Source: a virus (lineage: Duplodnaviria > Caudoviricetes). From it: a stretch of DNA of 64,000 nucleotides. Location: the IMG/VR virus record IMGVR_UViG_3300015607_004160; one strand, given 5' to 3'. A model generated the notes under the pieces. It worked only from the letters and a program-made list of their open reading frames with translations. It did no database searches and had not been told where the DNA came from. Positions 3,773-64,000 of this stretch are shown here, in pieces. Position numbers and translations under genes: made by a program. The first letter of the stretch is position 1; every line of letters starts with the position of its first letter.

Positions 3773-4321
3773 TTAATTGAACTTAAATTCAATAGTTAAC
3801 TGCATTATTCTTCTATGTGGTTGGTTAAGATATGGATTAGATATAATATCTGAAAATGATTTAGATATATCTGATGATATTTTTTCCTTTTTAACTTTAT
3901 TTCCTAGTTTTATAATTTTTTGTATATGATCATCGGTTATTTCTTTTGTTTTATTATAATCACTCGTTATTTTTTTAATAAAATTTTTCCAAATAGTATC
4001 ATTCTCATCTTCAATTCCATTATAGTAGTTACAAACTCTATTCCTATACCTCTCTAAATCATTTAGTAGTTTACTATCAATAAATTTATCTAAATTATCA
4101 TATGAATGATAATTGGGGTCATAATTAAATATTTCATATCTAATTATTACTAATACTGTTTGGAGTTGAACATCTTCAAGTTTAACAAACCTATAACTAT
4201 TTCCATTAAACTGATTATTCGTTGCTTCCTTTAAATTCCACTTATCTGCAACTTCAATAAATAAGTCTGTTATAAATTCATAGTCATCATTAAAATTCTC
4301 ATATAATTTAAGATATTTCAT
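3773..4321 (-). CDS. Hypothetical protein with N-terminal MKYLKLYENF tag (module B)
   Basis: N-terminal motif; DLFIEVADKW matches DLFLEIADKF of 60460..61551. Confidence 0.7.
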   Translation of the reverse strand: MKYLKLYENFNDDYEFITDLFIEVADKWNLKEATNNQFNGNSYRFVKLEDVQLQTVLVIIRYEIFNYDPNYHSYDNLDKFIDSKLLNDLERYRNRVCNYYNGIEDENDTIWKNFIKKITSDYNKTKEITDDHIQKIIKLGNKVKKEKISSDISKSFSDIISNPYLNQPHRRIMQLTIEFKFN

Positions 4322-4722
4322 CTATACTTTCTAAAATTTGTATGAGCATCTTTTTTAATAAATTCAATATTTTCTCTAGATGCTGCTTCGTGTAAAAATT
4401 TAACTTTTTTATAAATTTTCTTAGCTAGAAGATGGCTTATGTTTAATTTAACATCATCTATAAATATCTTATAAGATACACCACCATCAGAGGCAAGTGG
4501 TATAGAGGTATTGAAAAGCCTAGCAGGTCCTTCCGATAATTCTATTTTAATACTAAAATCATCAAGTGTAAACGAATGTGTACTATCAGCATAGGAGTGA
4601 GGATTCCTTACAACAACAACTTCTAAATTTGATAAAGAATCTAATTTGTTTAAGATACCATTCGCTGTTTCAACATCTAAATTTTTTTTAAAGAAACCTT
4701 CAAATGTTTTAATATTTTTCAT
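4318..4722 (-). CDS. Hypothetical tagged protein (MKNIKTFEGF), paralog of 47323..47694
   Basis: Start re-assigned to ATG at 4722 after TAATATATA; ETA.GILN..D, F..D.F.IK, I.KDA...F shared with 47323. Confidence 0.7.
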   Translation of the reverse strand: MKNIKTFEGFFKKNLDVETANGILNKLDSLSNLEVVVVRNPHSYADSTHSFTLDDFSIKIELSEGPARLFNTSIPLASDGGVSYKIFIDDVKLNISHLLAKKIYKKVKFLHEAASRENIEFIKKDAHTNFRKYR

Positions 4723-4793
4723 AATGTATATATTAAAATAGTTTTTCAATTTAATATATAAGATACGTACTGCTACCTTAGGATAGTACAAAA

Positions 4794-4820
4794 AACCACA
4801 CCCTTAGACCAGGTGTGGTT
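4794..4820 (-). terminator. Intrinsic terminator downstream of Nampt
   Basis: aaccacacc...ggtgtggtt inverted repeat with an A-run on the left (U-tail on the - strand). Confidence 0.6.
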
Positions 4821-4841
4821 TAATTTTATTATGAAATTTTA

Positions 4842-8381: not shown

Positions 8382-9620
8382 TTAATTTATTTCTTCATAA
8401 TATCCACCGGTATCACCCATTAACCCCTGTGCATCTATAGTAGTAGGATAATTTGAAATTATTTTGTCATCAAAATTAATATAAGTTAATGAATCAACAT
8501 AAGGATAGCGATCAAACCTTGACTTTTCTAATTTTACCGTATATTCAGCACTTTTAGATGTGACTCCGTTAGTAACATTAAATCTTTGTGATGAGTTTTG
8601 AACAGACTTAGACCACCAACCCTTCTCGAAGGCATATTTTTGAAATAAAGGAACATCCGAGTCATAGTTAGTGTATATTCTATCCATAAAAATATCTCCT
8701 TGATCTGTAGTCCAAACAAGAGCCCTACCTTTTATCTTTCTAGAAACATATTTATCACCTTGAATAGTTCCATTATCCGACTGCAGTATAAGAAGGCGAC
8801 AGTTTTTATTATTTGTATATATGTCAAAATAATCTTCATCAACATTCGCCATACAAGAGCTGCCTAATGTAGACTCCTCACATTCATAATTACTCATATT
8901 ATACCAATAAGCAATATCATCTCCTTCTACTAATCTAAATTTTAAAAAAGCATCATTCATCATATCATATGTAGATTTATATGAGTTTACAAAATCTTCA
9001 ATTTCCTTGTCTGTGAACTTTATTTCAGCAGCAGTCAGAACTGATCTAACTAGTCTTCCTATTTTAATATTATTCCTAAATGTTGACCATATCTTAGTTA
9101 ATTTTTCATCATATGGAATCACAGCTGTTTTATTTAAAACAGTTTGATTGCGACCATCTTCAGATACAAACCAAACATATATTCTATCACTCATATTAGA
9201 TTTAGCTTCACTTTTGATGATTCCTATAGCACCTCTTTCTGGTTCCCATGGATCCTCATCTTCATTAGGAGTATATCCTAATCTACTGAATATATCGAAA
9301 TTTCTTTTACTATTTGTTAAGTATCTATCTGTGTGAGTTACTCTATATTTAATAACTGGATCTTCATCTCCAAAAAATTCCTTAGCTTTTCTATCTGCGG
9401 TAAATGTTACTTCATCTTTGGCCTTTCCGGTATCTATGTAATTTTGAGTAAAATTTTTATCTACACCGTTTTTACTTAATGTAATTAGCTCTTTAGCTAT
9501 TCTATTTTTCTTAATTTGACTAACTAAATTAATAAACTTATCAGAATATTGAATTTTTGATTCCAATATTAATGATTCAAATAATAATTCAAATTGGAAA
9601 TCACTATATCTCTTAATCAT
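8382..9620 (-). CDS. Hypothetical phage protein (tag-like N-terminus; LGSSCM...GRALVW...MDRIY domain)
   Basis: 412-aa ORF with TAATATATA upstream; no function assignable. Confidence 0.7.
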   Translation of the reverse strand: MIKRYSDFQFELLFESLILESKIQYSDKFINLVSQIKKNRIAKELITLSKNGVDKNFTQNYIDTGKAKDEVTFTADRKAKEFFGDEDPVIKYRVTHTDRYLTNSKRNFDIFSRLGYTPNEDEDPWEPERGAIGIIKSEAKSNMSDRIYVWFVSEDGRNQTVLNKTAVIPYDEKLTKIWSTFRNNIKIGRLVRSVLTAAEIKFTDKEIEDFVNSYKSTYDMMNDAFLKFRLVEGDDIAYWYNMSNYECEESTLGSSCMANVDEDYFDIYTNNKNCRLLILQSDNGTIQGDKYVSRKIKGRALVWTTDQGDIFMDRIYTNYDSDVPLFQKYAFEKGWWSKSVQNSSQRFNVTNGVTSKSAEYTVKLEKSRFDRYPYVDSLTYINFDDKIISNYPTTIDAQGLMGDTGGYYEEIN

Positions 9621-9957: not shown

Positions 9958-10481
9958 ATTTTCCTTTTAGTTTTCATATAGGCCTGTATGTCCTCATATG
10001 TAACTGCTCCTGGATTAATTGTTAACTTATCTGGTGATCCAACTTTTTGATTTTTTTCTTCCGCCTTTTCTTTATCTTTTTGAACTTTTTCATGATACCT
10101 ATCATCAACCTCTTTTAGTAAATACCCTATATAAGCATCGACCCCTTTATGTGCGATAAAGTCTTGGTCATAATCAAATAAAAATTCTTCCAAATCATAA
10201 TAGATAGCTAATATATCTTCATGTATTCCATAATCTAGATAGAATCGAATATTACCAACATTTCCCTGAGCATAGATAGTTGTTTTATATTGAAAATTAT
10301 AGGATATTGAGAATTGATCTTTATCACTAATGATACGTTCCCCGTTTTTTTCCATAGTGACCGCCATCCCTAAATTAACTTTGAAATATTTACTTTTCTT
10401 GATTGTTTGTATAACTTTCTGATTTGTTACTACGTTATATGTTTTTACCATATCATATTTATTAAAATGGGCTATCTTCAC
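9954..10481 (-). CDS. Hypothetical protein
   Basis: 175-aa ORF in a co-oriented run. Confidence 0.65.
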   Translation of the reverse strand: MKIAHFNKYDMVKTYNVVTNQKVIQTIKKSKYFKVNLGMAVTMEKNGERIISDKDQFSISYNFQYKTTIYAQGNVGNIRFYLDYGIHEDILAIYYDLEEFLFDYDQDFIAHKGVDAYIGYLLKEVDDRYHEKVQKDKEKAEEKNQKVGSPDKLTINPGAVTYEDIQAYMKTKRKI

Positions 10482-11280
10482 TATCAGTATCCTTAACTTT
10501 ATTAGACCTTATTTGTAAATATAATACTTTGTTATTAGACTTTAACCATTCTATGGTTTTGTCAATTATATACTTCCTTAATGTAATAATTTCAGATAAA
10601 GCATATTTATTTTTAAAATCCTTTCGAAATTCACTACCAAGAGACCATAAGCTAAATCCAGAAATCATTTTAAATTTATAAACACTTCCATTGTATTTAG
10701 CGTTTATATCATAGAAGTCATTCCGATCATCAACCGATTTTTCAACACCAATAATTATTATCTTTTCTATCTCTTTGTACATTCCTTTATATAATGCAGA
10801 TTTCTCCATACTATGTTTTTGTTGGTATTCATATACAGCATCAATGGCTTCTTTTGGAATTTGTCCTATTTTATCTACCATGTATTGTCTATAATCATTT
10901 TTTTTATAATTGAATTTAAATGGGTCATTAATATCATTTGGAGATATGACAAAATAAGGAGCCTTTTCACCATTGGACATTACACCACCTTGTCCCCAAG
11001 TGGAACCGGAATAGTAGTCCCATGTTAGTCTAAGTTTATAACCATCTTTGAATGTAAACCTATACATATTGGATGTTAAATTATGCCTGTAAAATCCTTC
11101 AGAACTGGTAGAACACCATTGAGGATCACTAATTGTTTTAGATGAGTCTAAAGTTTTAACGACTTTAATAGTCATTTCTTCATCACTATAAATAAGATGT
11201 GTATTTTTCGGCGTTTCTTTTTTAGATTGCCTTTCTTTTTCAAATTCTATAAATGTTTCAAATAGAAATAGATGTTTCAT
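10462..11280 (-). CDS. Hypothetical tagged protein (MKHLFLFETF)
   Basis: N-terminal motif; PQWCS motif. Confidence 0.7.
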   Translation of the reverse strand: MKHLFLFETFIEFEKERQSKKETPKNTHLIYSDEEMTIKVVKTLDSSKTISDPQWCSTSSEGFYRHNLTSNMYRFTFKDGYKLRLTWDYYSGSTWGQGGVMSNGEKAPYFVISPNDINDPFKFNYKKNDYRQYMVDKIGQIPKEAIDAVYEYQQKHSMEKSALYKGMYKEIEKIIIIGVEKSVDDRNDFYDINAKYNGSVYKFKMISGFSLWSLGSEFRKDFKNKYALSEIITLRKYIIDKTIEWLKSNNKVLYLQIRSNKVKDTDSEDSPF

Positions 11281-11813: not shown

Positions 11814-11912
11814 TTTTTAATTTTTATTTTTCCAATCTGTTATCATATCAGTGAATTTTCATTAAATAGTTTAATATGATTCATTTTGTATATATTAATT
11901 TTACCTTATTAA

Positions 11913-13826
11913 TTACCAACTACCAGATGCTCCACCACCTCCTGAACTTCCTCCTCCAAATCCACCAAATGAGGATGATGAAGATGAAGATGATGAGTAA
12001 GAGCTATAACTACTTCTTCTCCTTTCTTCTTCTTTCCTTCTTCTTCTTCTTTCCTCTTCTCTTCTTCTCCTTTCTTCTTCTTTCCTTCTTATTTCTGCTT
12101 CATATTCTTCAATTACATCATTCATAAAATTAATAACACTATCTAATGCTTTCTCAAGTTCAAACCAGTCTTTAGTTACTGATAATTTATTTTTAAATTT
12201 ATCTATAAGATCATTTAGCTCAGACTTATCACCACCAGCAGTTTTAAATTTACTCATCAGTCTATCCACCTCACTTTCCCAATTTTTAACTCTACTTATA
12301 GTATTCTCAATAGATCCTAATGTAGTTGCTACTCCTGAGGCCTTTTGTATAATTGATGATATACCAGAGGTGTATTTCTTATATAAAGAAACAGCACTAT
12401 CAATATCAGTATTAAGTAATGATATTATCTGAGGTATCATTACTGATAAAGACTCAATTTCGGATTTATTTGGAATTGGGCCCGCATCATATCCATAATC
12501 GCTTATTTTTTTAGCATCTCTAACTGCCTTTTCAATTGTTGTGTATGCTGAAGATTCTATATCTTGGACTCCACTTGCGGCAGATTTAAATTTACTAATT
12601 TCATCGTATTTAGATTTGTAGTTTCTAAATAATGAATACATACTACTATATGTTAACTCTATTTCCTCTTTGAACTCCGCTGTATTTTTTGGGGTTTGAA
12701 TAACTATACTGTTGAAATATTTCTTACACTCATCATAGGAAGCTTGTAGTGATTTACTTCCAACTATACCAACATTTGATGGAATTTTTGATTTCAACCC
12801 CTCTATATTAGCAAGTATTTTATCAATGTTTTCTTTCATCTCCTTCATCTCCTTAATCTTTTTCATTCTCTTATAATATCCATATGCGAATATTGCAATT
12901 AGAAGTGACACCATCAATCCTTGAAGTGTTATTTGCCAGAAGTTATTCCAAAATTCTGCGGATTTTTGATCATCATAAGCTTTCTTTTTAGCAAAAGCCT
13001 CTCTTCTTATTTCCAATAGATCACTCCCTATAACTGATTTTATTTGCTCTAAAGCAGCCATTATACCACCATAATAATCTTTCTCTTTAAAATGAGGAAC
13101 AATTTGCTCCCTACCAATTTCACTGCAAGTAACATCTGGTAAGAATCCTTCCATACCATACCCTGTTGTAATATTCCACTTTCTATCTTCTTTTGATAGA
13201 ACAATCAAAACACCATTATTTACACCTTCTTTACCTACACCAATCCTTCTGAATTGATCAAGTGCATAATCTTCAATAGATTTGTCTTCAGGGAGCTTAT
13301 TGATTGTAATTATTCCAATTTCAGTAGTAGTTAATTTTTCATAATCAGAAATCCAGTTATTAATACTTGGCTCTTTTGAGTCTTCAATCATATTACCCAT
13401 ATCAGTTAGCCAGTTATCTGGATGAAATTTAGTAATATCAACACCAGAATAATCATGTTCAATATACGCTTGATTAAACATGTATTGCTTACCACTTTTA
13501 TTCACATATTTTCTAATATTATCATAACTTGATTTAATATTTGGATTTTGTTCTTTAAATTTATCGAACAATGATGGCAATTCAGATGATAGGCTTTTTT
13601 GAAATAATCCTGTATTGAGTTTATTTAAATAGTCAACGAATAGTGCACCATCAATCTTACCTTGGTCAAGATTATCAACAAATTCTTTTTGTTGTTTTTT
13701 GTTTTGACCATGTGCAATACTTGGTGGAATTAATCCTAATCCAGCCAAAATAAGGAATGTAGATAACCAGTTTTTTAGTCCTTCATTCATTTCTTCATGA
13801 TTTTCAAATGTGTGTAGATATTTCAT
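11913..13826 (-). CDS. TPM-domain membrane protein with N-terminal tag, coiled coil and Ser/Gly-rich tail
   Basis: IEDYA...F...GVGK...NNGVLIVLS..DRK..I.TGYGMEG.LPD TPM signature; TM helix; C-terminal SFGGFGGGSSGGGGASGSW. Confidence 0.85.
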   Translation of the reverse strand: MKYLHTFENHEEMNEGLKNWLSTFLILAGLGLIPPSIAHGQNKKQQKEFVDNLDQGKIDGALFVDYLNKLNTGLFQKSLSSELPSLFDKFKEQNPNIKSSYDNIRKYVNKSGKQYMFNQAYIEHDYSGVDITKFHPDNWLTDMGNMIEDSKEPSINNWISDYEKLTTTEIGIITINKLPEDKSIEDYALDQFRRIGVGKEGVNNGVLIVLSKEDRKWNITTGYGMEGFLPDVTCSEIGREQIVPHFKEKDYYGGIMAALEQIKSVIGSDLLEIRREAFAKKKAYDDQKSAEFWNNFWQITLQGLMVSLLIAIFAYGYYKRMKKIKEMKEMKENIDKILANIEGLKSKIPSNVGIVGSKSLQASYDECKKYFNSIVIQTPKNTAEFKEEIELTYSSMYSLFRNYKSKYDEISKFKSAASGVQDIESSAYTTIEKAVRDAKKISDYGYDAGPIPNKSEIESLSVMIPQIISLLNTDIDSAVSLYKKYTSGISSIIQKASGVATTLGSIENTISRVKNWESEVDRLMSKFKTAGGDKSELNDLIDKFKNKLSVTKDWFELEKALDSVINFMNDVIEEYEAEIRRKEEERRRREEERRRRRKEEERRRSSYSSYSSSSSSSSSFGGFGGGSSGGGGASGSW

Positions 13827-15650: not shown

Positions 15651-15749
15651 ATGAAATACATTATTACTTTTGAAAAATTTAACTTTAGTAAAATTACTAA
15701 AAAAATCAAAAAATATTTGGTGCTAAAGAGGATAATAAAATCATACTAG
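15651..15749 (+). pseudogene. Tag-only micro-ORF or truncated tagged gene (MKYIITFEKFNF..., 32 aa)
   Basis: TAATATATA at 15637-15645, tag peptide, then an early stop after A-runs. Confidence 0.45.
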
Positions 15750-18214: not shown

Positions 18215-18682
18215 ATGAAAATTAGAAAATTTAACGAAAGTGTTAATACTAAACCAATTGTCTATATAGACATGGATGATACTATTTGTGATTATACAAC
18301 TCACTATAAGGAAATGAGTCAATTAAATCCAGATGTAAAGTATCCACAGTCTAAAGAGGGATTTTTTCTTAGCTTAAAACCTTTACACGGAGCAATTGAG
18401 GCAGTAAATAAATTAAGAGAGGTATTTGATGTTTATATTTTAACAAGTCCATCATATAAAAATCCACTTTGTTATACTGAAAAGAGAATATGGATTGAAA
18501 GGCATTTTGATTTAGACTTTTGCCAAAAGCTTATTATATCACCAAATAAAAATATACTAATGGGTGACTATTTAATAGATGATATTCTATGGGATAAATT
18601 CAAAGGAGAACAAATTCAATTTGGTAAATCACCATTTGAAAATTGGGATAAAGTTATTAAATATCTTATAAAATATGCTTAG
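18215..18682 (+). CDS. 5'(3')-deoxyribonucleotidase (NT5C, HAD family) with N-terminal tag
   Basis: YIDMDDTICD, YILTSP, EKRIWI..HF, GDYLIDD; begins MKIRKFNES. Confidence 0.85.
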   Translation: MKIRKFNESVNTKPIVYIDMDDTICDYTTHYKEMSQLNPDVKYPQSKEGFFLSLKPLHGAIEAVNKLREVFDVYILTSPSYKNPLCYTEKRIWIERHFDLDFCQKLIISPNKNILMGDYLIDDILWDKFKGEQIQFGKSPFENWDKVIKYLIKYA

Positions 18683-50071: not shown

Positions 50072-50185
50072 ATGACAAAAGTTTGTAAAAAGTGCAACAT
50101 AGAGAAGGATATAACTTATTTCTTTAATGATAAGTCAAAAAAAGGTAGTCAAGATCTAGTTGTTAAAATTATTAAATTAAAATGA
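50072..50185 (+). pseudogene. Remnant of a zinc-finger homing endonuclease N-terminus
   Basis: Manual translation MTKVCKKCNIEKDITYFFNDKSKKG... stops after 37 aa. Confidence 0.4.
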
Positions 50186-50622
50186 ATTACATTAAAAAAT
50201 ATAAAACATTTGAAAGTATTAATGATCTATATCAAAAAATAAGTGTAGATGAATATAATGATATGTTTGATTTAGATGATTCAGATGATCAAGATGTATT
50301 TTCAAGATCTAAAAGTGTCTTTTTTAAAGATAAAGAGATAAAAGAGGTGCAAAATATTGTTCCCGAATCAATTAGAAATATCTTTAAAAGTGATGTTATA
50401 TTTCTAAAATATCTTGGGGTTCAAATATCTATTAATAAGTTTGATGATGAATGGTTTTTAGTAATGGTTACAAAATCACCAACCGATGAAGAGTTAAGAT
50501 CCACATTTTATAAAATAGATGATTATACATTTGAATACTACAAGTGTGACCAAATAGATGGGTTAATAAATCTATTAAAAAAATTAGTAGAAGGTTTACT
50601 ACCATGGGTGCCAAACAAATGA
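50182..50622 (+). CDS. Tagged module-A protein
   Basis: MNYIKKYKTFES; KFDDEWFLV...YYKCDQIDGL. Confidence 0.7.
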   Translation: MNYIKKYKTFESINDLYQKISVDEYNDMFDLDDSDDQDVFSRSKSVFFKDKEIKEVQNIVPESIRNIFKSDVIFLKYLGVQISINKFDDEWFLVMVTKSPTDEELRSTFYKIDDYTFEYYKCDQIDGLINLLKKLVEGLLPWVPNK

Positions 50623-51950
50623 AACACATAAGAGAGTTTAGTTTATTTGAATCTAAGATTAATGCCATTAGGGTAGAAATACCATATGAAACTTATGAAA
50701 AAGATTCAAATGGTCACTATACCAAAAATAGAATCAAGGGTAAATCTAAAATCATTGATTATGCAGATAGAAAAGTTGTCTTATTTGATATAAATGGAAT
50801 AAGAATTCCATTTTATTTATCATCTGGTCATGCTGGTAAAAAAGATGTTGCGGCAGGAAAGTGGTATCCATTTTTTGGAATAGGTTCAGATTATTGGTTT
50901 AATAAAGGTCATCAAAGTGATATAAATAAGTATTATGAAATAGGTATACTCAAAAGCATTGCTCAATCATTGGATTCAAATATAGGTGACATTAGAAATG
51001 ATAAAACTATTCCTAAAGTAGCTCCAAATGGAATACATCTTGATACAATTAATAGAGATTTGACGCCAACCGAACATGGAATGTCTTATACAGTAAATAA
51101 GTTTTATGACAGTGTTAAAAGGATAAAAGAAAAATTAGAATCATTAAATGAGAACGCATCTTTTAATACATTATATCATCAAATAGATAATAATGAATTC
51201 GGATCCATGGTCAAGGATGTAAATGCTTTAGAACGTTTTGGGTCAGAAATAGATCAAATAGAAAAAGTCCTTAAAAAGGATTGGTCTAAATTAATAATTC
51301 ATTCATCTTATAAGATAGAAATTAGGACTAAAATAGGTAGTGATATTGTAGGGTTTTACATGATATTTTTCAGAATATTTAAATTAAATGATGAATGGTT
51401 TTTAGTTGAAAGAGAGAATATTACAAAAAATACAAAATTATACTATAAGTGTGATCAACTTGATGGATTAATAGAATTACTTGAAGATGAAGGAGTGGTA
51501 GATTTAAGCATACATGAGAGTGTAATGTCACCTGATGAGGTAGAGGACTATTTTATTGAATTTTTAGATGACGGAGATATTAATATAGTAGAATCGGAAC
51601 AAGATGAATTACATCGTCAATGGAGAGGTCGATCTAATATATATTTACACTATCTCTATATTAATAGTGTAAAAATCAATAAATTTGATAGTCATCAAAA
51701 AAAGATAGAATCACCAAAAGTTAATACATCAAAAGAAAATGTTACGTATTTAAAAATAGAAATATTACAACCAAAATGGAGGGTCAGAGGCAATTTGGAT
51801 GTAGGTGGATATACAATTGATACGATGGACTATCTTTTTAGAAAATTCACTAGACACATTAATTGTAATATACTTATTAAGATAATGGATCAAGATTTAT
51901 TTGGAGATATACTGTCTAAATCAATAGTTAGAATTGAATTTTTAAATTAA
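50619..51950 (+). CDS. Tagged three-module protein (unknown domain + module A + module B)
   Basis: Start at MKHIREFSLFES; PFYLSSG..GKWYPFFG domain; LNE junction; DEWFLV..YYKCDQLDGL; IHES junction; EDYFIEFLD. Confidence 0.7.
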   Translation: MKHIREFSLFESKINAIRVEIPYETYEKDSNGHYTKNRIKGKSKIIDYADRKVVLFDINGIRIPFYLSSGHAGKKDVAAGKWYPFFGIGSDYWFNKGHQSDINKYYEIGILKSIAQSLDSNIGDIRNDKTIPKVAPNGIHLDTINRDLTPTEHGMSYTVNKFYDSVKRIKEKLESLNENASFNTLYHQIDNNEFGSMVKDVNALERFGSEIDQIEKVLKKDWSKLIIHSSYKIEIRTKIGSDIVGFYMIFFRIFKLNDEWFLVERENITKNTKLYYKCDQLDGLIELLEDEGVVDLSIHESVMSPDEVEDYFIEFLDDGDINIVESEQDELHRQWRGRSNIYLHYLYINSVKINKFDSHQKKIESPKVNTSKENVTYLKIEILQPKWRVRGNLDVGGYTIDTMDYLFRKFTRHINCNILIKIMDQDLFGDILSKSIVRIEFLN

Positions 51951-51960
51951 TATATAGTTT

Positions 51961-52185
51961 ATGAAGATTATAGATTTATTTCTTAATATTTTTAAAAGTA
52001 AATATATTATCGAATATAAAATAGAAGATAATATTTATAATCTTGTAGTTAAAGGTAGATCAGAAGATGATGCTATAATGAATTTTGAAGAAAAGTGGAT
52101 AAACACATTCGGTAAAGTGTATCCATTTCCTAAATATGAGATACTTTCTGTAAAAAGATTTTTTAATAAAATAAGATTAAGATGA
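51961..52185 (+). CDS. Small hypothetical protein
   Basis: 74-aa ORF preceded by TAATATATA. Confidence 0.55.
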   Translation: MKIIDLFLNIFKSKYIIEYKIEDNIYNLVVKGRSEDDAIMNFEEKWINTFGKVYPFPKYEILSVKRFFNKIRLR

Positions 52186-52739
52186 GATATATTAAAAACT
52201 ATAAAACATTTGAGGCAATATCCTCTCTACTAAATATTCATAATAATGTAGATGAGGGACTTATGAATGTAATTGATAACATATCTTATCCGGGATCATC
52301 TATATTAGAAATTGCTTGCGGAAATGCGGAAGACTCATTATATCTACAAAAAAAAGGATATAAGGTAACATGCACTGATTTGGATGATGGATATATAAAA
52401 AATGCTATAGACAAAGGTTTAAATTGTATTAAGCATGATACTAAAAAGAAATTTCCCTTTATTGATAATGAATTTGATTTAGTATATTCAAGATTAGGAT
52501 TACACTATTTTACAAAAGAGGAATTAAATGAAATCTTTAGGGAGATTAGAAGAATAGGTAAAAAGTTATTAATGAGTGTTAAAATTCAAAATGATAATAT
52601 TAAAACAAATAAGATAATATTAACTCCAGGTGAATGGAAAGAAATCATTTCTAATTTTTTTGAAATTGAAGATGTAAAGATAAGAGAAGGTAAACTATAT
52701 GGTGAGGATGCAAAATGGATGGAAATAATAGCTAAATAA
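52182..52739 (+). CDS. Class I SAM-dependent methyltransferase with N-terminal tag
   Basis: ILEIACGNAED, VTCTD, FPF.DNEFDLVYSRLGLHYF. Confidence 0.85.
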   Translation: MRYIKNYKTFEAISSLLNIHNNVDEGLMNVIDNISYPGSSILEIACGNAEDSLYLQKKGYKVTCTDLDDGYIKNAIDKGLNCIKHDTKKKFPFIDNEFDLVYSRLGLHYFTKEELNEIFREIRRIGKKLLMSVKIQNDNIKTNKIILTPGEWKEIISNFFEIEDVKIREGKLYGEDAKWMEIIAK

Positions 52740-52754: not shown

Positions 52755-53498
52755 ATGAAAAAGATAAAATTATTTGAAGACTATGATAAGGATTATGAAA
52801 AGGGTAAGAAAACTGCTCTTAGTAATTTTCCACACCTTCAAAAAAAAGAAGCTGAGAAAAAGGAAAAAAGGATTAAAAAATCATATAAAGAAGATCCTGA
52901 TGGAATGTATCCAAGAGATGATAAGAGATATGATGATTCAGAAAATAAAGGTGGATGGCAAGATGGTATGGGTAAGCCCGATTGGATAGGTGAGTCCCTT
53001 TTCAAGAAATCAAATAGTGAGTGGGATTATGTTAAAAATGAAATAATAGACAGAATATCCGGATTATCAATAGATTGTCCTGAATGTGAGACTATTATTC
53101 ATGATGATGAACAATATCAATGTGGAACTTGTAACGGTGGTGGAAAAATATGGGTTAAAGAATGGATTGAAAGTCATATTGGATCTTTAAATGAATCTCA
53201 ATTCAATTTAAGTGAAGGTGAGAAGTGGAAGATTTATGCAGGTTTGGGAGGCGGATTCGGTGGTGCCAAATACATTAGAACATTTACAGGACCAAAGGTT
53301 CAAGCCGAAAAGGAGGCTTATTATGCTGCGATTGAGGAATATGAAAGTTATGAAGGATTACACGGATTAAGAACCGTGGACGAGATAATGGAAGAAGATG
53401 AAATTGAGGATCAAGATGAAGCTGAACAGGTATATAACGATGAGAGAGAATCTTGGTTAGAATACTATGTAGAACCAGATGATGGAAAGGAAGAATAA
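52755..53498 (+). CDS. Tagged multi-module protein with CxxC-CxxC zinc finger
   Basis: MKKIKLFEDY; IGES and LNES junctions; CPEC...CGTC. Confidence 0.7.
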   Translation: MKKIKLFEDYDKDYEKGKKTALSNFPHLQKKEAEKKEKRIKKSYKEDPDGMYPRDDKRYDDSENKGGWQDGMGKPDWIGESLFKKSNSEWDYVKNEIIDRISGLSIDCPECETIIHDDEQYQCGTCNGGGKIWVKEWIESHIGSLNESQFNLSEGEKWKIYAGLGGGFGGAKYIRTFTGPKVQAEKEAYYAAIEEYESYEGLHGLRTVDEIMEEDEIEDQDEAEQVYNDERESWLEYYVEPDDGKEE

Positions 53499-53563: not shown

Positions 53564-53579
53564 TAGATAAACTTATAGT

Positions 53580-55196: not shown

Positions 55197-55201
55197 AAAT
55201 T

Positions 55202-55555: not shown

Positions 55556-55565
55556 TATATAACCA

Positions 55566-57167: not shown

Positions 57168-57171
57168 TTAA

Positions 57172-57789: not shown

Positions 57790-57790
57790 T

Positions 57791-57822
57791 AAAAAGAGTC
57801 AGAAAAATCTGACTCTTTTTTT
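57791..57822 (+). terminator. Intrinsic terminator closing the R-M-like cassette
   Basis: aaaaagagtcaga-aaaa-tctgactcttttt followed by a T-run. Confidence 0.8.
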
Positions 57823-57835
57823 TATATATACATTT

Positions 57836-58432
57836 ATGAGAAATATTAAATTATTTAAAGAGTTCTCGTTATATGTAGATAAGGATGGTAAAATGCGCGA
57901 ATCTGATTGGGAAACTGATGAGAATGAAGATATTGGACCTGGTGATTTAGTTCATTTTAAAAAGTATGGAACACTTTATGTGGTTACCATAACAGTAGAT
58001 GGGTATGTGGTATCAGAAGATGAAGAGCAAAGATATATGGGAGATGAGGGAGAAGGACATATAATACCTCTCTCAGCAGCATTAGATGCACAAATATTAG
58101 AGAAGGGTGATGATGAAGGATATTTGATGGAATCCAACAGCGAAATAGAGGTTAAATTTGTTAGTAAGAGAAATCGAACACAAGCTTTTAATGTATATAA
58201 AACTCCAGATGGTAGAATTACAAGAATTGAAAAGCCTAATCATGTTCATGTTAATTTTCCATTTAAAGTTGGTCAGGTATTAAATAGAAATATAGAAACA
58301 TGGGCTTGTAATAATCACTTTTATATAGATGGAAAGGATACTTGCCCAGAAGAAAAAATATTTGGTATTAGGAAATCCGATATACCAAAAGGACATGAGT
58401 TAAGAAACTTATTTCCAAATAAATTTAGATAA
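57836..58432 (+). CDS. Tagged two-module hypothetical protein
   Basis: MRNIKLFKEF; LMES junction. Confidence 0.65.
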   Translation: MRNIKLFKEFSLYVDKDGKMRESDWETDENEDIGPGDLVHFKKYGTLYVVTITVDGYVVSEDEEQRYMGDEGEGHIIPLSAALDAQILEKGDDEGYLMESNSEIEVKFVSKRNRTQAFNVYKTPDGRITRIEKPNHVHVNFPFKVGQVLNRNIETWACNNHFYIDGKDTCPEEKIFGIRKSDIPKGHELRNLFPNKFR

Positions 58433-58437
58433 TAAAT

Positions 58438-58659
58438 ATGAAACATTTAAAAAAATTTGAAGATACTAAACCAAGTATCATAAACGAATCTAAATCCACA
58501 ATTGATCCAGTAGTATCTATGGAAGTAGAGACAGTAGAATGGGACGATCCAGAAGATTTCGGAAAAACAAAAACACTTATTGTTAAAACAAAAAGTGGAA
58601 AAATTTACAAAACTAAGTTAAAATCTGATGAAGATGAAGACTATAGTGGAGAGCAATAA
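58438..58659 (+). CDS. Small tagged hypothetical protein
   Basis: MKHLKKFED..INES. Confidence 0.65.
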   Translation: MKHLKKFEDTKPSIINESKSTIDPVVSMEVETVEWDDPEDFGKTKTLIVKTKSGKIYKTKLKSDEDEDYSGEQ

Positions 58660-58677
58660 ATAAATTTAGAAAATAAT

Positions 58678-59118
58678 ATGAGACACATTAAACTATTTGA
58701 AAATTTTGAGGAAGAAAAAGAGTGTAAGTGGTGTTATAAAAAATTTACACCAGAGAAAAAGTTCCAAGATTGTTGCTGTTCCGAATGTGATGGTAAATAT
58801 AACAACTATTTAGGCAATGATGGTGCTGAGGCTCCTTGGTCCAAGTATACCGAATCCAAAATTTATGACTATAAAATACTTCCAAAAGAAGCTATTAAGG
58901 AATTAGAAATGTATGTCAATGTAAATAATCCATCAAATAAAATAGAAGTCTATCCAGATCCACAAGTTGAAGGAACATATGCACTAAGAATAACAAGAAA
59001 TGAACATGGACATACACATCCTGAAGTATTCACATTATTATGGAATAAAGGTGGATATGATGAAATTGATTTTGATGAATTTCCACCAAAATCTGGAAAC
59101 TTAAAATTTTTTATATAA
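58678..59118 (+). CDS. Tagged protein with zinc-finger module
   Basis: MRHIKLFENF; CKWC...CCCSEC; YTES junction. Confidence 0.65.
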   Translation: MRHIKLFENFEEEKECKWCYKKFTPEKKFQDCCCSECDGKYNNYLGNDGAEAPWSKYTESKIYDYKILPKEAIKELEMYVNVNNPSNKIEVYPDPQVEGTYALRITRNEHGHTHPEVFTLLWNKGGYDEIDFDEFPPKSGNLKFFI

Positions 59119-59463
59119 ATGAAAATTAGAAGATTTAATGAAGGTATATCTAATTTAAAATATGAAAGCTTTGATTTCTTTGACATAACTGTTGAGAAGT
59201 TAAAACATTATAAAGGATGGACCGTCTTCTATATTTCAAAAGAAGATCAATATTGTCAAGTTTTTAATTTCACTAATAAGGAAGACTTTGATAGAAACTT
59301 TTCAATAAATAAACATCCAAATTATCCAGGTAATATTGTTGCCCCTAATAATGTTGAAGAGACAGAACATGGAAATTCAGATAGATGTATAATAGATGGC
59401 CAAGAATTTTATTTAGAAACTCTTGAATTATATCTAATAATAGATGGAAAATTAATGAGATAA
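59119..59463 (+). CDS. Tagged hypothetical protein
   Basis: MKIRRFNEG. Confidence 0.65.
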   Translation: MKIRRFNEGISNLKYESFDFFDITVEKLKHYKGWTVFYISKEDQYCQVFNFTNKEDFDRNFSINKHPNYPGNIVAPNNVEETEHGNSDRCIIDGQEFYLETLELYLIIDGKLMR

Positions 59464-59838
59464 ATGAAATATATTAAAACATTTGAGAATGAGGTATCTC
59501 CAGTTGATTTAATAGAAGACTACTTTCTTGAACTAGTAGATAGTAAATGGAAAGTATCTGTGAAAAAAACTAATGCAGTTTATAGAAAAGATGATGGTGT
59601 TAGTAGATCATATCATATTAAAAATGGTGTTAATAATTCTGGATATCCCGACTCTTATATTTATAGAAAAAAACCTGGATATATAGTTTCATCTATCATA
59701 GATAGTGATACTAATGTTGTTAGTGAATTTCTTAATGATGTTAATAAGGTTGCAAATAGATTTAGTTTAAAGTCTAAATTATATGGAATAGTGGAGAGAG
59801 GTAACAAAATATTAATAAAAATTGAAATTATAGAATGA
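59464..59838 (+). CDS. Tagged module-B protein
   Basis: MKYIKTFENE; EDYFLELVD; KKPGYIV. Confidence 0.65.
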   Translation: MKYIKTFENEVSPVDLIEDYFLELVDSKWKVSVKKTNAVYRKDDGVSRSYHIKNGVNNSGYPDSYIYRKKPGYIVSSIIDSDTNVVSEFLNDVNKVANRFSLKSKLYGIVERGNKILIKIEIIE

Positions 59839-60173
59839 AATATTTAAAACTATTTGAAGCATTTAATCCATATGATGATGAACCATTAAGCAGAGTCGAA
59901 CAACATTTTGGTAAGCAAACACGATTAGAAAAACAATTTTCAGAAATTGTTACTAATGGATTAATGGGTGAGGATGATTGCTTTTGGTCTTGTTTTAATG
60001 CTCTTAAAATAGAAATAAAGGAAGTAATTGATGAGGATGATGATTTATATAAAGAGTTCATGCATAGGATAGTAGAAGGTGAGAATCCAGTTGATGTTAT
60101 TAATTGGATATGTAAAGAAATTCCTAAAAATGCCGAAATTGATAGATTATTACAAAAAATAAATAACCTATGA
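59835..60173 (+). CDS. Tagged hypothetical protein
   Basis: MKYLKLFEAF. Confidence 0.65.
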   Translation: MKYLKLFEAFNPYDDEPLSRVEQHFGKQTRLEKQFSEIVTNGLMGEDDCFWSCFNALKIEIKEVIDEDDDLYKEFMHRIVEGENPVDVINWICKEIPKNAEIDRLLQKINNL

Positions 60174-60463
60174 AATATCTAAAGTTATTTGAATCAAATA
60201 GAATGCCAAAGAGATGTAGCCAAAAAGAAGCTACAGATAAATTGAACTCTTTTAAAAGAGAAAAGCTATCTGAAAACGAGATAAAATGGATATGTTCAAA
60301 ATTTTCAGACATAAAATTAGCTAAGAGCTCAATATATATCAAAGACAATATTTTAATAAGTAAGTTATGTGATAGTTGGTTTATAATATTTACTGAACAT
60401 GATGCAGAATATTATATAGCTGACGAATTCATAGAGGTCCAAAATTTTTTACAATCAATATGA
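60170..60463 (+). CDS. Tagged, divergent module-A protein
   Basis: MKYLKLFES; KLCDSWFII...YYIADE. Confidence 0.65.
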   Translation: MKYLKLFESNRMPKRCSQKEATDKLNSFKREKLSENEIKWICSKFSDIKLAKSSIYIKDNILISKLCDSWFIIFTEHDAEYYIADEFIEVQNFLQSI

Positions 60464-61551
60464 AATATTTAAAACTATTTGAAAATTTTAATGCATTTAA
60501 TCCAGAAGATATATCAGATTTATTCTTAGAAATAGCGGATAAATTCGATATACCTGAAATGACTTCCGAGGAAATCATGAATAAGACAATTGATGAGTCG
60601 ATTGATAAATATTATAATATTTTCAAAAATATACATGGTGATTATGTCATTGATGTTAAATGCGGGATAGATAATGTTTCTAGCTTTTTAAAAGAATTAG
60701 AAAAATTTAAACTAAGATTAGAAAAATTTGACATGTATATTATAATTCATGATTATCCGAATGCTCCTGATAATTTTAAAGTCGGAATATCAAATAATCC
60801 AGAATCAAAAACCATTAAAGAAGCATTGTTAACCTACAATTTAGAAAATCTATTTAAACAAGTAGAATTATATAAAGTCGCTGATGGTATTTATTGTGTT
60901 GTTATTGAATCACAACAACTAAGAGCATTTACATTCTTAAGATTACAAGAATATTATGAATCATCATCGAGTGAGTTTCAAGGAAATAGATTTACATGGG
61001 ATAGATACATTCAATGGTATAAAAGCTCTGAAGGTCCAACTGGTGAAAAAGATGTTTTCACTTATGGAAGTGATTGGAGTGGATTTAATATACCTTCAGA
61101 ATCTATTGAGAAATGTATGGAAGAAGTTGATGATCCAAATAGATATGATGATCTAATGGTATCTATTATCACTGAGATTAAAGAAAGAGAAAGTGATAAA
61201 TATTACATAATTGGTGTAGATGAACTAGATGTTAATAGTGATTTATTAGACCATGAATTAGCACATGGATTTTATTATACAGATAAAGAATATAGAACAA
61301 AGATGAATAATTTAGTCAATTCATTACCAAAGGAAGAGAAAAAAGCAATCTCTGATGTAATTATTGGGATTGGGTATAATGAATCGGTTTTAAATGATGA
61401 GATACAAGCTTATATGTCAACTGGTATAATTGATAGAATGCCTAAGTCACTAAGTAATTATACAGAGAAATTTGAGAAGGTATTTAAGGAAGCTAAACAA
61501 AAACATCACGCAACACCTCAAAAAATTGAACTCACTTATCTAAATGATTAA
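60460..61551 (+). CDS. Tagged module-B protein fused to an HExxH metallopeptidase-like domain
   Basis: MKYLKLFENF; DLFLEIADKF; IKEA junction; LDHELAHG...DEIQAY. Confidence 0.65.
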   Translation: MKYLKLFENFNAFNPEDISDLFLEIADKFDIPEMTSEEIMNKTIDESIDKYYNIFKNIHGDYVIDVKCGIDNVSSFLKELEKFKLRLEKFDMYIIIHDYPNAPDNFKVGISNNPESKTIKEALLTYNLENLFKQVELYKVADGIYCVVIESQQLRAFTFLRLQEYYESSSSEFQGNRFTWDRYIQWYKSSEGPTGEKDVFTYGSDWSGFNIPSESIEKCMEEVDDPNRYDDLMVSIITEIKERESDKYYIIGVDELDVNSDLLDHELAHGFYYTDKEYRTKMNNLVNSLPKEEKKAISDVIIGIGYNESVLNDEIQAYMSTGIIDRMPKSLSNYTEKFEKVFKEAKQKHHATPQKIELTYLND

Positions 61552-62080
61552 AACATTTTTACAATATAATGAGGCAATTTCAGAAAATTTATCCCTATCT
61601 GATTTTTTATACTTGCATTTAGATAATGTTGAAGTATCTATTGGATACATGCATAAACGTGTATCAATTGACAAAATTAAAGATGAATTTGGTGTGCAAA
61701 ATTTTGTAGATGACTATATATCACTTGCTAAGAAAAACAATCAATGGGCTGGTGGTCCACTAAATAGAGAATGGGCTAATAAATATTATAAATTTTTTGG
61801 TATGGATTTTCCACATACAGAATGGAAGCCGACAATAGGTATCCACTTAGTTTTTAATGACGGATCGATATTTATTATTGGATTCAGTATGATAAGTAAA
61901 AATATTTCAGATATGAATTGGGCATTATCTCCGGACGGATCGGTTGGAGCCGAATTCTATAAAAGGGATAGAGATAATACAAATTGGGCAGATTTTTCAT
62001 ATGATGTGTATTATGATATAATACATCGAATAATACCTGGTTATGCTTTTAACTGGGAGATAGATCCTACATACAACTAA
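61544..62080 (+). CDS. Tagged hypothetical protein
   Basis: MIKTFLQYNEA. Confidence 0.65.
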   Translation: MIKTFLQYNEAISENLSLSDFLYLHLDNVEVSIGYMHKRVSIDKIKDEFGVQNFVDDYISLAKKNNQWAGGPLNREWANKYYKFFGMDFPHTEWKPTIGIHLVFNDGSIFIIGFSMISKNISDMNWALSPDGSVGAEFYKRDRDNTNWADFSYDVYYDIIHRIIPGYAFNWEIDPTYN

Positions 62081-62081
62081 T

Positions 62082-62624
62082 ATGAAATACTTAAAATTAT
62101 TTGAAGAACATTCTAAATTATATACACAGATAGATTATAATGAATTTAAGGAAAGGTATAAAAGTTTACAGGACTTCTCAAAGAAGTATGCCAATAGAAT
62201 ATCAGAAATATTTAATGATTATAAAAATACAGATTTTATAGAGGATTATAATAAAACAAAATACATAAATGTAGTCATAGATAAATATGGTAAAATATTA
62301 AATTATGATGATTTAAATGACGGAGATTATGATAATTCTGAAATATTTGACATGGTTATTTTAAAATATAGAAAAAAAGGAATTATAGATAACAAATATG
62401 TATTCTTTGATGTAGATATGAATATTACCCAAAATGAGGATGGATGGTTTTATGTTAAATATAGTTACTATATACCGGATAGGACTACACCAATAACATT
62501 TTACAAATGTGATCAAATTGATGGACTACTCAACTTTATTTGTGATATTATTGAAAGGGGAACAAATCTAAATATTAGAATGCCTGGAATGCCACATGGT
62601 GCTGAAGGATACTATTATAATTAA
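62082..62624 (+). CDS. Tagged module-A protein
   Basis: MKYLKLFEEH; EDGWFYV...FYKCDQIDGL. Confidence 0.7.
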   Translation: MKYLKLFEEHSKLYTQIDYNEFKERYKSLQDFSKKYANRISEIFNDYKNTDFIEDYNKTKYINVVIDKYGKILNYDDLNDGDYDNSEIFDMVILKYRKKGIIDNKYVFFDVDMNITQNEDGWFYVKYSYYIPDRTTPITFYKCDQIDGLLNFICDIIERGTNLNIRMPGMPHGAEGYYYN

Positions 62625-63749
62625 TTATTTTTGATATCCCTCATCATAAATTTTAATTATCTCATTATATTCTTGAACAATACCATTTTTAATCTTTTCA
62701 TTTTCATAAGATTGTGCTAAAATATATTCTCTAATAACTTCTTTGTATTCAAGTTGTATTTTAGGAACATCTTCACCGTCTAAGTTTTCATTAATAATAC
62801 TTTGTTTAATATCTTCATCGGTTTCAGCATCTGTTGTATTAATATCATCAACATATTCAACAGAAGCAAAATTTCCTGTTTCTAAAAGGATTTCTAATTT
62901 TCTTCTTAATTTACGATTACTAACTAAAAGTGAATTTGATATGTATAAGTCAATATAATCTTTTGTAGATACCTTATCTAAAGAGTCTATATCACCCTCA
63001 TTCATAACATAAACCTTCTTGAATTTAGGTGAAATTAGGTTTGGTATGAATGTTTCGGTTCCTTCTATAACATCTAAAATAAATATACCTTTTTGGTTCT
63101 CTCTATCATTTCTATCCATTTCATGAATGGACCCAACAAAAGTGAAATTTTTATTTACTTGGTGAATGTGTATGTGTCCGCTATAAACCTTCTTATATTT
63201 TTTGAATTCTTCTACATCTATTTTATCGGTATTTTTTTGTGCTACTGACGTTAAGTGCATTTTAGCACCATTTAAGTCCGAATGGCAAAATAAATAATCG
63301 GCACTTTTAAATTTCTTCAACAATTCAATTTGATCGTTTCTTTTTTCCACCCAAGGAAGCATTAATATAGATTTGCCTAAATAATCTATTTTAATTGCTT
63401 CTTCATATACAAATACATTTGGTATATACTTATATAATTTAACTGTATTTACATCATTAGAGCTCTTGGTATATAAGTCGTGGTTTCCAATTATAAGATG
63501 TGTTGGACATATACTAGATAACTCCTCTAGTATATATTGTGCATAGTTTAAAATATTAATAGGGACAATGTTTCTATTATCAAAGAGGTCTCCTAATAGA
63601 ACGATAATATCGTCTTTTGTTAATTCTTTTTTAGCAAGTGGTAATAAAAATTCTTGAAAGTATTCTTGTGCGACTTTAAACCACTTATCAACTGAGTTTG
63701 GATATCCCAATCCAAGGTGAATATCCCCTAATACTAATATTTTAGACAT
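62625..63749 (-). CDS. T4 gp47/Mre11/SbcD-like recombination nuclease subunit
   Basis: GDIHLG, LGDLFDNR, IGNHD, SGHIH metallophosphoesterase motifs. Confidence 0.9.
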   Translation of the reverse strand: MSKILVLGDIHLGLGYPNSVDKWFKVAQEYFQEFLLPLAKKELTKDDIIVLLGDLFDNRNIVPINILNYAQYILEELSSICPTHLIIGNHDLYTKSSNDVNTVKLYKYIPNVFVYEEAIKIDYLGKSILMLPWVEKRNDQIELLKKFKSADYLFCHSDLNGAKMHLTSVAQKNTDKIDVEEFKKYKKVYSGHIHIHQVNKNFTFVGSIHEMDRNDRENQKGIFILDVIEGTETFIPNLISPKFKKVYVMNEGDIDSLDKVSTKDYIDLYISNSLLVSNRKLRRKLEILLETGNFASVEYVDDINTTDAETDEDIKQSIINENLDGEDVPKIQLEYKEVIREYILAQSYENEKIKNGIVQEYNEIIKIYDEGYQK

Positions 63750-63814
63750 TTAACATAACTAATATTTTTCTTTATAGAGAAAAAAATGATTATGGTTTAT
63801 TTAATATATAATTA

Positions 63815-64000
63815 ATGAAGCATATAAATAAATTTAATGAGAGATACTCTGGAAAAGAAACCGGATGTGAATACAAAAATGATTTTATCAAAGCTTTGGA
63901 AACATTATTTTATAGCTGGGGAAGTGAAGCACCGCCAGAAGCATACTGGGCAGCTAATGAATTATTAGACTGGTTTGAAAAAGAATTCGATAGTAAAATT
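63815..64000 (+). CDS. Tagged hypothetical protein (partial, runs off window end)
   Basis: TAATATATA at 63802-63810, then MKHINKFNERYSGKETG... Confidence 0.6.
   Translation, partial: MKHINKFNERYSGKETGCEYKNDFIKALETLFYSWGSEAPPEAYWAANELLDWFEKEFDSKI

Follow-up and report, generated by a model that had tools for sequence, protein, structure and literature searches.

A portable N-terminal peptide on dissimilar proteins of huge phages, with a possible role in loading proteins into the phage head

The DNA analysed here (the window; 64 kb, GC content ~29 %) comes from a virus of the Caudoviricetes (IMG/VR record IMGVR_UViG_3300015607_004160) and encodes many dissimilar proteins which start with nearly the same ten residues, i.e. 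M-K-[YH]-[IL]-K-L-F-E-[NSDE]-[FY], hereafter called the tag. We are highly confident that the tag is an address tag acting at the protein level, i.e. that it would serve as a portable N-terminal address which is read as protein. It is carried by proteins that are soluble and, for the most part, small, acidic and hypervariable; effector-like domains occur in some of them. The best-supported mechanism is loading of the tagged proteins into the prohead and removal of the tag by a prohead protease of family S77, which we regard as having an about even chance of being correct. More tentatively, and with somewhat more doubt than belief, we propose that 50 to more than 100 tagged effector-like proteins, around a tenth of the proteome, are loaded via a leader that a protease-scaffold protein recruits and cuts.

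A strict pattern, M-[KRN]-x-[ILV]-[KRNHF]-x(1,2)-[FYIL]-(x)-[ED], applied as a regular expression to all six frames, matched 17 times in the window, every time at the start of an open reading frame (ORF). In narrower notation, the strict peptide reads M-[KR]-[YHN]-[IL]-K-x-[FY]-E-x-F. Sixteen of these ORFs encode 62–637 residues, while the remaining one is a 13-residue remnant (11884, minus strand). With a position matrix, 15 window ORFs scored 12.9–31.3. A longer form, M-[KRN]-x-I-[KN]-x-[FY]-K-x-F-(N)-E-[SA], starts at 32587 (minus strand), 47698, 50182, 50619 and 52182, and a shorter form, MKIR[KR]FNE, at 18215 and 59119. The original prediction, made from the sequence alone, had counted about 29 tagged ORFs; the shared peptide is real, and about 25 members (the 17 strict ones plus around eight variants) are credible, while those at 9620, 11813 and 33047 (all minus strand) and 61544 are doubtful and the one at 23047 is weak. 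The tag-free status predicted for DnaK, Nampt, the gp47-like (Mre11-like) nuclease, the restriction-modification genes and the tail genes agrees with the ORF list and the annotation, and NUDIX, helicase, Eco57I-type methylase, lysozyme, fibre and large structural genes of the window lack the tag as well.

The tag recurs in related phages, as a scan proposed with the original prediction now shows: in a complete relative genome (G002; 482 kb, 743 ORFs), 55–67 ORFs scored above the matrix thresholds, compared with 0–1 once the N-termini were shuffled. A degenerate DNA pattern of the tag gave 1–57 matches in each of ten related genomes or records (10–57 in the nine large ones), and none when the pattern was read backwards. 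The DNA pattern for MKYLKLFE was present in at least 118 IMG/VR loci on contigs of 6–482 kb, and 236 of the 1481 ORFs in the IMG/VR loci listed were tagged. The tagged share ranges from 8 % of ORFs in the whole G002 genome to ~16 % in loci selected for the tag, overall 8–17 %. Among 596 Gb of cellular genomes we found 47 pattern matches, of which only about four stood at ORF starts, all on viral-looking contigs of metagenome-assembled or single-amplified genomes; the tag is virus-specific. A megablast search of a phage collection with the tag array found no match, tblastn and blastn searches with the bare tag returned nothing or AT-rich noise except for huge phages of the LR75xxxx series and no cultured phage with the tag, and a literature search retrieved no description of the peptide, nor of capsid-targeting sequences (CTSs) in huge phages.

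Conservation lies in the peptide rather than in the DNA, the alternative against which the original prediction was to be checked. Synonymous sites vary among the five window genes that start with MKYLKLFE, and the sequences upstream of tagged genes show no relationship. Of the identical-residue pairs within G002 tags, 44 % use different codons, which is near the genome-wide expectation, and tag leucines are encoded by TTA, CTA, CTT or TTG. Since identical residues use different codons and upstream DNA is not shared, the tag is selected as a peptide. Its information content is high at positions 1–8 and 10 and falls to background beyond, with a weakly acidic character up to around position 17, and Glu8 is present in 96 % of tags.

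The tag is a module appended through a variable linker, outside the folded body. The 312 tagged bodies fell into 209 clusters (E below 1e-5), among which there were no capsid, tail or core replication proteins. Pfam searches with 149 representatives identified lysozyme, LRR, TPM, SET, GNAT, C39 peptidase, zeta/AAA_33 kinase, PolX thumb, NFACT-R, methyltransferase and other domains, one or two of each, as well as NT5C, and two more clusters resemble ankyrin and isochorismatase families by eye. For the window, Pfam bore out the predicted dissimilarity of the bodies, i.e. a TPM protein, an NT5C nucleotidase, an S-adenosylmethionine (SAM) methyltransferase and an AAA-like protein, the remaining tagged bodies being orphans.

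The nucleotidase is particularly informative: cellular NT5C homologs (from Aureispira, Fulvivirga, Marinomonas, Shewanella and others) start 5–9 residues before the catalytic DxD and are free of the tag, as had been anticipated, while the closest, phage-type homologs have the tag and a non-conserved linker of ~4–14 residues added. In the AlphaFold2 model of the window nucleotidase, the body reaches pLDDT values of 92–99, and the first ten residues, without secondary structure, a value of 53. The G002 nucleotidase homolog carries a Cys-rich (zinc-ribbon-like) N-domain in place of the tag, and the G002 homolog of the C-terminal domain of window ORF 60460..61551 is untagged. The G002 homolog of the TPM protein (44995–46665, minus strand) has a classical signal peptide where the window protein has the cytoplasmic-type tag and a 130-residue extension, which implies that the destination of this protein differs between the two phages. 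The tag itself was rejected as a Sec, Tat or lipoprotein signal peptide: by the criterion of a hydrophobic core of at least 7–10 residues after a basic N-region, it does not qualify, as Lys and Glu alternate with hydrophobic residues and an acidic stretch lies behind. A membrane-type segment was predicted in 1 of 58 tagged compared with 75 of 511 comparison proteins, and the tagged proteins are also more acidic.

A candidate reader of the tag is encoded next to the major capsid gene of relatives. The window DnaK shares 78 % identity with that of LR756502.1, a 642 kb record of an uncultured ‘huge phage’. This record and four relatives (G002, G003, G004 and G008) contain an ORF of ~700 residues with an S77 (T4 gp21) domain (225272–227371 in LR756502.1, i.e. 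L225:20273-22372; 68283–70328 on the minus strand of G002, i.e. L175:8283-10328), which is also found in loci L226-L305. Matches to PF03420 had E values from 4e-8 to 2e-5 and bit scores of 30.8 in G002 and 29.3 in G008 (cut-off 27), and of 22–23 in the three others. The ORF matches phrog_207, ‘head maturation protease’, with an E value of 2e-35, the sole PDB match of the protease domain is 5JBL, i.e. T4 gp21, and His86 and Ser142/143 are invariant. By profile and catalytic His/Ser residues, these proteins of relatives of the window phage belong to the S77 family.

C-terminal of the protease domain lie 11–15 tandem 14-residue repeats, YSEY[LI]AENLDKNI; an acidic stretch and then a conserved C-domain complete the protein. 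The repeat motif hardly varies across 80 loci, its core being Y-[LIV]-[AG]-E-[NKSH]-[LV]. The protease-repeat ORF was found in at least 469 IMG/VR loci, and the major capsid gene (phrog_138) directly follows it. The motif of T4 gp21 is L/I-x-E. Prohead proteases of the T4 family and of the phiKZ family (phiKZ, 201phi2-1, SPN3US) cut after Glu within an x-X-E motif, and T4 gp21 cuts the scaffold protein gp22 to small peptides (PMC5694885, PMC9958956). As gp21-type proteases thus cut x-X-E and digest scaffold, the repeats appear, from their sequence, to be a scaffold which is fused to the protease and presents the latter's cleavage site, [LI]-A-E-N-[LV], cut after E.

The repeat core [LI]-A-E-N-[LV] matches tag positions 6–10, L-F-E-[NSDE]-[FY]. 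Within the first 14 residues of G002 proteins, [LI]-x-E occurs in 53/60 tagged vs 112/683 untagged proteins, and the extended form [LI]-x-E-N-hydrophobic in 12/60 vs none of 683. The capsid protein has an N-terminal W-x-P-[VI]-[LI]-E-[NS], which is kept between proteins that are just 32 % identical. A predicted complex of the G002 protease-scaffold with a 96-residue tagged protein scored 0.00 and is evidence neither way.

Tagged bodies should avoid [LI]-x-E if they share a compartment with a protease specific for it. We therefore compared Glu and Asp usage past residue 20, relative to overall Glu/Asp use, with one representative per BLAST cluster (217 tagged vs 1490 untagged). Glu was under-used relative to Asp exactly at i+2 after Leu or Ile (odds ratio 0.75 in tagged and 1.02 in untagged proteins), with a log ratio of −0.30 (95 % confidence interval −0.44 to −0.17; 1 of 1500 bootstraps at or above zero), while 14 controls (offsets −3 to +4; anchors V, FYW, A and KR) all stayed within ±0.18. 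The avoidance recurred in whole genomes (−0.41 for G002, G005 and the window) and, at −0.26, in the IMG/VR loci, with a flat mirror control in each case. It fits an exposure of the tagged bodies to a protease that cuts [LI]-x-E, is specific and is predicted by none of the alternative explanations discussed below.

Upstream sequences and gene order add to this picture. Two motif classes are enriched upstream of G002 genes, i.e. [AG]ATATATA and TA-n-n-TTTG, the latter of which we take to resemble the Bacteroidota −7 element. [AG]ATATATA begins 12 nt or ~30 nt before the ATG and ends ~5 nt or ~22 nt before it. Since this promoter-like motif ends ~5 nt before many start codons, the sequence suggests nearly leaderless transcripts; no Shine–Dalgarno sequences precede the genes of the window. 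In G002, [AG]ATATATA stands ahead of the tail sheath, baseplate wedge and two fibre genes as well as of the first genes of tag arrays, the largest of which, with ~28 tagged genes, lies immediately behind the sheath gene and shares its strand. In the window, all eight tag-array leaders (8/8) have the motif ahead of them, as do the fibre and large structural genes, for example as [AGT]ATATATA at 57823..57830 (plus strand), ending ~5 nt before the ATG, and at 31495-31503 and 47309-47316, while RlaP, the Nampt/NUDIX operon and the helicase carry the TAnnTTTG type. As the array leaders carry [AG]ATATATA and not TAnnTTTG, the tagged genes are, judged by their upstream sequence, outside the early-type class. 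The tag is likewise absent from the early- and replication-type genes of the window, where an equal frequency would have spoken against the original prediction.

Tags are also found close to the head genes. At 56.4–61.5 kb of G002, near the capsid gene, there is a run of eight tagged or tag-like genes, including a homolog of the tagged AAA-like protein of the window, and in IMG/VR locus L227 the genes behind the capsid gene include three with strict tags. Loose tag-like leaders ending in [LI]-N-E, such as MTLKFKEWDQLNEA and MHNHIKSLNDFPLFEG, head the conserved post-capsid genes of most of the 80 loci, and their matrix scores are shifted upwards (p = 7e-15, uncorrected for relatedness).

Taken together, the mechanism that we favour would proceed as follows: late proteins, once synthesised, would be docked by their tag in the scaffold core of the prohead under assembly, the gp21-type (S77) prohead protease would cut after the Glu of the tag's [LI]-x-E and thereby remove the tag, and the mature proteins would remain in the head, to be delivered with the DNA at the next infection. 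We infer that the protease-scaffold is the reader, that cleavage falls after Glu8 (Glu13 in the G002 type) and that the proteins are packaged and ejected; the ejection of tagged proteins into the host would have precedents in T4 and phiKZ-type phages.

Several points weigh against this mechanism. The protease was seen solely in relatives with a DnaK identity of 78 % or less. Two tag-bearing relatives, G005 (347,857 bp or 348 kb, complete-looking with inverted terminal repeats, 26 % GC, myovirus-type, 21 tags) and G007 (14 strict matches), yielded no S77 protease, protease-scaffold or recognisable capsid gene, in the case of G005 in a search with phrog_138, phrog_207, PF03420, PF04451, phmmer, a hidden Markov model of the protease-scaffold and PHROG scans of ten large ORFs. 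Leu occupies position 6 (P3) in just ~70 % of tags. In the 20-kb neighbourhood of the protease in 80 phages, strict tags head 24/1348 ORFs (1.8 %), which is no enrichment, and just 6 % of the post-capsid leaders exceed the matrix threshold, so that their likeness to the tag is loose. The promoter-like motif also stands ahead of DnaK, lysozyme, methylase and homing endonuclease genes, so it may be shared by most phage-transcribed genes instead of being confined to late ones. The depletion of [LI]-x-E is modest and purely statistical, and may be due to a structural bias of small acidic proteins that has gone unrecognised. Finally, a cargo list of 8–17 % of ORFs would be unprecedented. The capsid-cargo reading put forward in the original prediction is partly supported: it gains from selection at the peptide level, from the tag's absence from early genes and from cellular nucleotidases, from the protease and its shared site in scaffold and capsid of relatives and from the avoidance of [LI]-x-E, and is weakened by G005 and G007, in which no such protease is recognisable.

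These two genomes, tagged yet without a recognisable S77 protease, speak for another explanation, in which the tag stays on the protein and docks or sorts it to a destination other than the capsid, such as a phage-made compartment or factory, a chaperone such as the DnaK of phage or host, or an AAA+ machine, and is not removed by the prohead protease. The ten-residue peptide is amphipathic in pattern with a variable linker behind it, the window clade has its own DnaK, the conserved AAA-like protein is itself tagged, and the tagged nucleotidase, methyltransferase and nicotinamidase-like protein would work equally well in the cytoplasm. However, G002 has 60 tags and no DnaK homolog, for which reason phage DnaK was rejected as a dedicated reader of the tag. 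Retained docking also leaves unexplained why the [LI]-x-E-N-hydrophobic core of the tag is that of the scaffold repeats and why tagged bodies specifically avoid [LI]-x-E, and no compartment-shell gene turned up, albeit none was searched for. We consider this explanation unlikely, albeit the least so of the alternatives.

The tagged genes are also the places where closely related strains differ. Compared with a near-identical relative (G001; 58 kb, 88–99 % identity across 15.8–53.6 kb of the window), the variable spots of the window are tagged genes, and extra tagged genes come and go. Gene 47323 keeps its tag in G001 while the body is replaced (42 % amino acid identity), and gene 52755 keeps its tag although ~140 residues behind it are missing. 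In variant contigs from four public libraries, gene 58438 is deleted in frame by a joint from 58442 to 58683, at which the fifth base of tagged gene 58438 meets the sixth base of tagged gene 58678. As such contigs join tag to tag in frame, the tag-coding DNA acts, to judge from the sequence of these joints, as a recombination joint. Additional cassette swaps were observed at 52753-53226 and 57778-57793.

In a further explanation there would be no reader at all, and the shared N-terminus would be a by-product of gene birth and expression, owing to an exchange of cassettes by recombination at the conserved 5′ end and to an A/U-rich start retained for initiation on nearly leaderless mRNAs that lack Shine–Dalgarno sequences. 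The variable spots, the breakpoint just behind a tag with the body replaced and the tag kept, and the tag-to-tag joint would all be expected, as would the lack of Shine–Dalgarno sequences next to a promoter-like motif ending ~5 nt before the ATG and the mild codon preferences within the G002 tag (CAC, AAA, CTA, GAG). On the other hand, synonymous sites are nearly saturated while the residues are kept between phages whose core proteins are 25–45 % identical, substitutions in the tag are conservative (I/L/V, K/R, F/Y), the tag survives a gain or loss of ~140 residues behind it, and the depletion of [LI]-x-E in the bodies has no explanation. Highly expressed structural genes start differently; as capsid, sheath and fibre genes do not use the tag start, a general optimisation of translation was rejected. 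A by-product without a reader is very improbable. Least probable of all is a degradation or timing signal, which a protease or unfoldase of phage or host would read in the cytoplasm so as to limit the lifetime of accessory proteins: a short, terminal, disordered motif on many accessory proteins and the ClpA/B-like double AAA+ gene of G005, which also encodes a baseplate wedge, would suit it, but a Met-Lys start is, to our knowledge, not a classical N-degron, no unfoldase conserved across the tag-bearing genomes was found, and the head is indicated instead, both by expression together with structural genes and by the likeness to the scaffold repeats.

Within the window, the first tagged genes lie on the minus strand: orphans of 182 residues (3773..4321; MKYLKLYENF, matrix score 29.1) and 272 residues (10462..11280; MKHLFLFETF), and between them an ORF of 134 residues (4318..4722; MKNIKTFEGF) with a promoter-like motif 13 nt upstream, all three found by both strict scan and matrix. 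At 11843..11884 on the same strand, the strict scan detected the 13-residue remnant, MNHIKLFNENSLI, which has two stops behind it and a promoter-like motif of its own, next to the TPM protein (11913..13826, minus strand; 637 residues, MKYLHTFENH, TPM domain at residues 141–264 by Pfam). The ORF predicted at 15651 does bear a tag, MKYIITFEKF, picked up by the matrix; it is a plus-strand mini-ORF of only 32 residues (15651..15749). These two short tag-headed ORFs, 11843-11884 and 15651-15749, are probably remnants of lost cassettes. The 5′(3′)-deoxyribonucleotidase NT5C (Pfam, AlphaFold2 model) occupies 18215..18682 on the plus strand with the variant MKIRKFNES outside its fold. Further downstream, a plus-strand gene of 144 residues (31509..31943; MKYLRKFNES, strict scan), 66 % identical to its G001 counterpart, overlaps a minus-strand gene of 221 residues with the long variant MRIKKFKYFES (31922..32587; ORF list and matrix).

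All remaining credible members lie on the plus strand. A gene of 123 residues (47323..47694; MKHIKHINEL, strict scan) precedes that of the tagged AAA-like protein (47698..50055; MKHINKFKLFNEA, phrog_1250, Pfam/PHROG). The latter is interrupted by an intein at ~48371-49426 with a Hint domain and a LAGLIDADG homing endonuclease; an intein-less allele, in which 48371 is joined to 49426, is present in G001 and in variant contigs of public runs. It is followed by ORFs of 146 residues (50182..50622; MNYIKKYKTFES, ORF list and matrix) and 443 residues (50619..51950; MKHIREFSLFES, ORF list, with an internal ATG taken as start). This 443-residue orphan had no match in the ESM Atlas, and BLASTP showed no homology to a similar-sized G002 protein of the tagged run near the capsid gene. 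The SAM methyltransferase (52182..52739; MRYIKNYKTFEA, Pfam) and an ORF of 247 residues (52755..53498; MKKIKLFEDY, strict scan) complete this region.

An array of ten genes starts with an ORF of 198 residues (57836..58432; MRNIKLFKEF, strict scan), which has a promoter-like motif 13 nt upstream. It continues with ORFs of 73 residues (58438..58659; MKHLKKFED, strict scan), 146 residues (58678..59118; MRHIKLFENF, strict scan and matrix) and 114 residues (59119..59463; variant MKIRRFNEG, ORF list). Strict scan and matrix also found those of 124 (59464..59838; MKYIKTFENE), 112 (59835..60173; MKYLKLFEAF), 97 (60170..60463; MKYLKLFESN) and 180 residues (62082..62624; MKYLKLFEEH), and the strict scan one of 363 residues (60460..61551; MKYLKLFENF). 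A last tagged ORF (63815..64000; MKHINKFNER), likewise detected by the strict scan, continues past the window end. Within the array, the 178-residue ORF at 61544..62080 (plus strand; MIKTFLQYNEA) is doubtful, with no match by strict scan or matrix. So is a 412-residue ORF on the minus strand (8382..9620; MIKRYSDFQFE, under the matrix threshold), and a plus-strand ORF of 104 residues (23047..23361; MNNIKSWED, matrix score 2.7) is a weak member.

Besides these genes, Pfam and PHROG annotated in the window Nampt, NUDIX, lysozyme, a GT2 glycosyltransferase and a T4-type RNA ligase, collagen-like and beta-helix fibre proteins, large structural-type proteins of 1145 and 2155 residues, a helicase, an Eco57I-type methylase, an Mre11-like phosphoesterase and many orphans. 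The RNA ligase (20967-23036; 689 residues) has an N-terminal GIY-YIG domain. Since its G001 counterpart (34595-36046; 483 residues) aligns only from window residue 209 onwards, the GIY-YIG part is likely, from this comparison, a mobile insertion or fusion. Further DnaK matches were found in LR745206, LR756501/3 and LR756504, i.e. in records of 635–735 kb. Public runs containing the window phage are from wastewater and activated sludge, and positions 44001-64000 of the window occur in runs X8, X10, X11 and X14, which are labelled wastewater metatranscriptomes. In these four libraries, early-type and tagged genes are covered evenly, and contigs reach up to tens of kilobases. Because depth is even across all genes and contigs are long, the phage reads look more like DNA carry-over than transcription.

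Beyond what had been predicted, the analysis adds the protease-scaffold repeat, the match between its site and the tag, the N-terminal site of the capsid protein, the avoidance of [LI]-x-E, the linker series of the nucleotidase and the strain-level turnover of tagged cassettes. If prohead loading is true, uncultivated phages of 0.5–0.7 Mb would carry a pre-made arsenal larger than any described, including ankyrin-like, LRR, SET, GNAT, kinase, nucleotidase and lysozyme domains and many small acidic orphans. The tag-to-tag recombination observed between strains points to a route by which the contents of this arsenal would be exchanged. In hundreds of metagenomic phages, the tag would then mark injected effectors and counter-defence proteins by sequence alone, so that the whole injected repertoire could be read from metagenomic sequence, and it might be used as a packaging handle.

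Several known systems resemble this one in part. Encapsulation peptides of microcompartments and cargo-loading peptides of encapsulins are short, terminal, attached by a flexible linker and sufficient to address unrelated enzymes to a shell. The tag is likewise a short terminal peptide on a flexible linker; in contrast to the proposed fate of the tag, those peptides are retained rather than cleaved, and the shells are cellular. Phage P1 builds anti-defence proteins of its Dar system (DarA, Hdf and others) into the head and injects them (PMC9024508, PMC12810830). Unlike the proteins described here, however, they have no known shared linear tag, and loading is hierarchical through protein–protein dependencies. 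In the giant phages phiKZ, 201phi2-1 and SPN3US, dozens of proteins that lie inside the head or are ejected are cut after Glu by a gp21-related protease, and a role in directing proteins to the prohead has been proposed for their propeptides (PMC5694885). Their gp175/gp245-type proteases cut S/A/G-x-E, whereas here Leu or Ile and not a small residue stands at P3, and their propeptides, which often exceed 100 residues, differ from protein to protein, whereas the tag is short and nearly invariant.

The tag would work like the CTS of phage T4 and is a candidate member of that kind of system. The T4 CTS, MKTYQEFIAE, heads the internal proteins IPII and IPIII, has related leaders on IPI, Alt and gp24, and is removed by the gp21 prohead protease. 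The internal proteins of T-even phages are diverse and defence-related, with the CTS as their one common feature (PMC3012670). The tag differs from it in sequence and in the position of its Glu (E8 here, E10 in T4), heads 8–17 % of ORFs instead of a handful, and is found in phages whose scaffold is fused to the protease as 11–15 tandem repeats and whose host is probably a Bacteroidota-type bacterium. In both cases, however, a peptide of ~10 residues ending in [LI]-x-E stands at the N-terminus of unrelated, hypervariable accessory proteins; M1, K2, a hydrophobic position 4 and F7 are shared by eye, in a peptide too short for homology statistics; and the phage family has an S77-type protease of the kind that also digests the scaffold (PMC3012670, PMC9958956).

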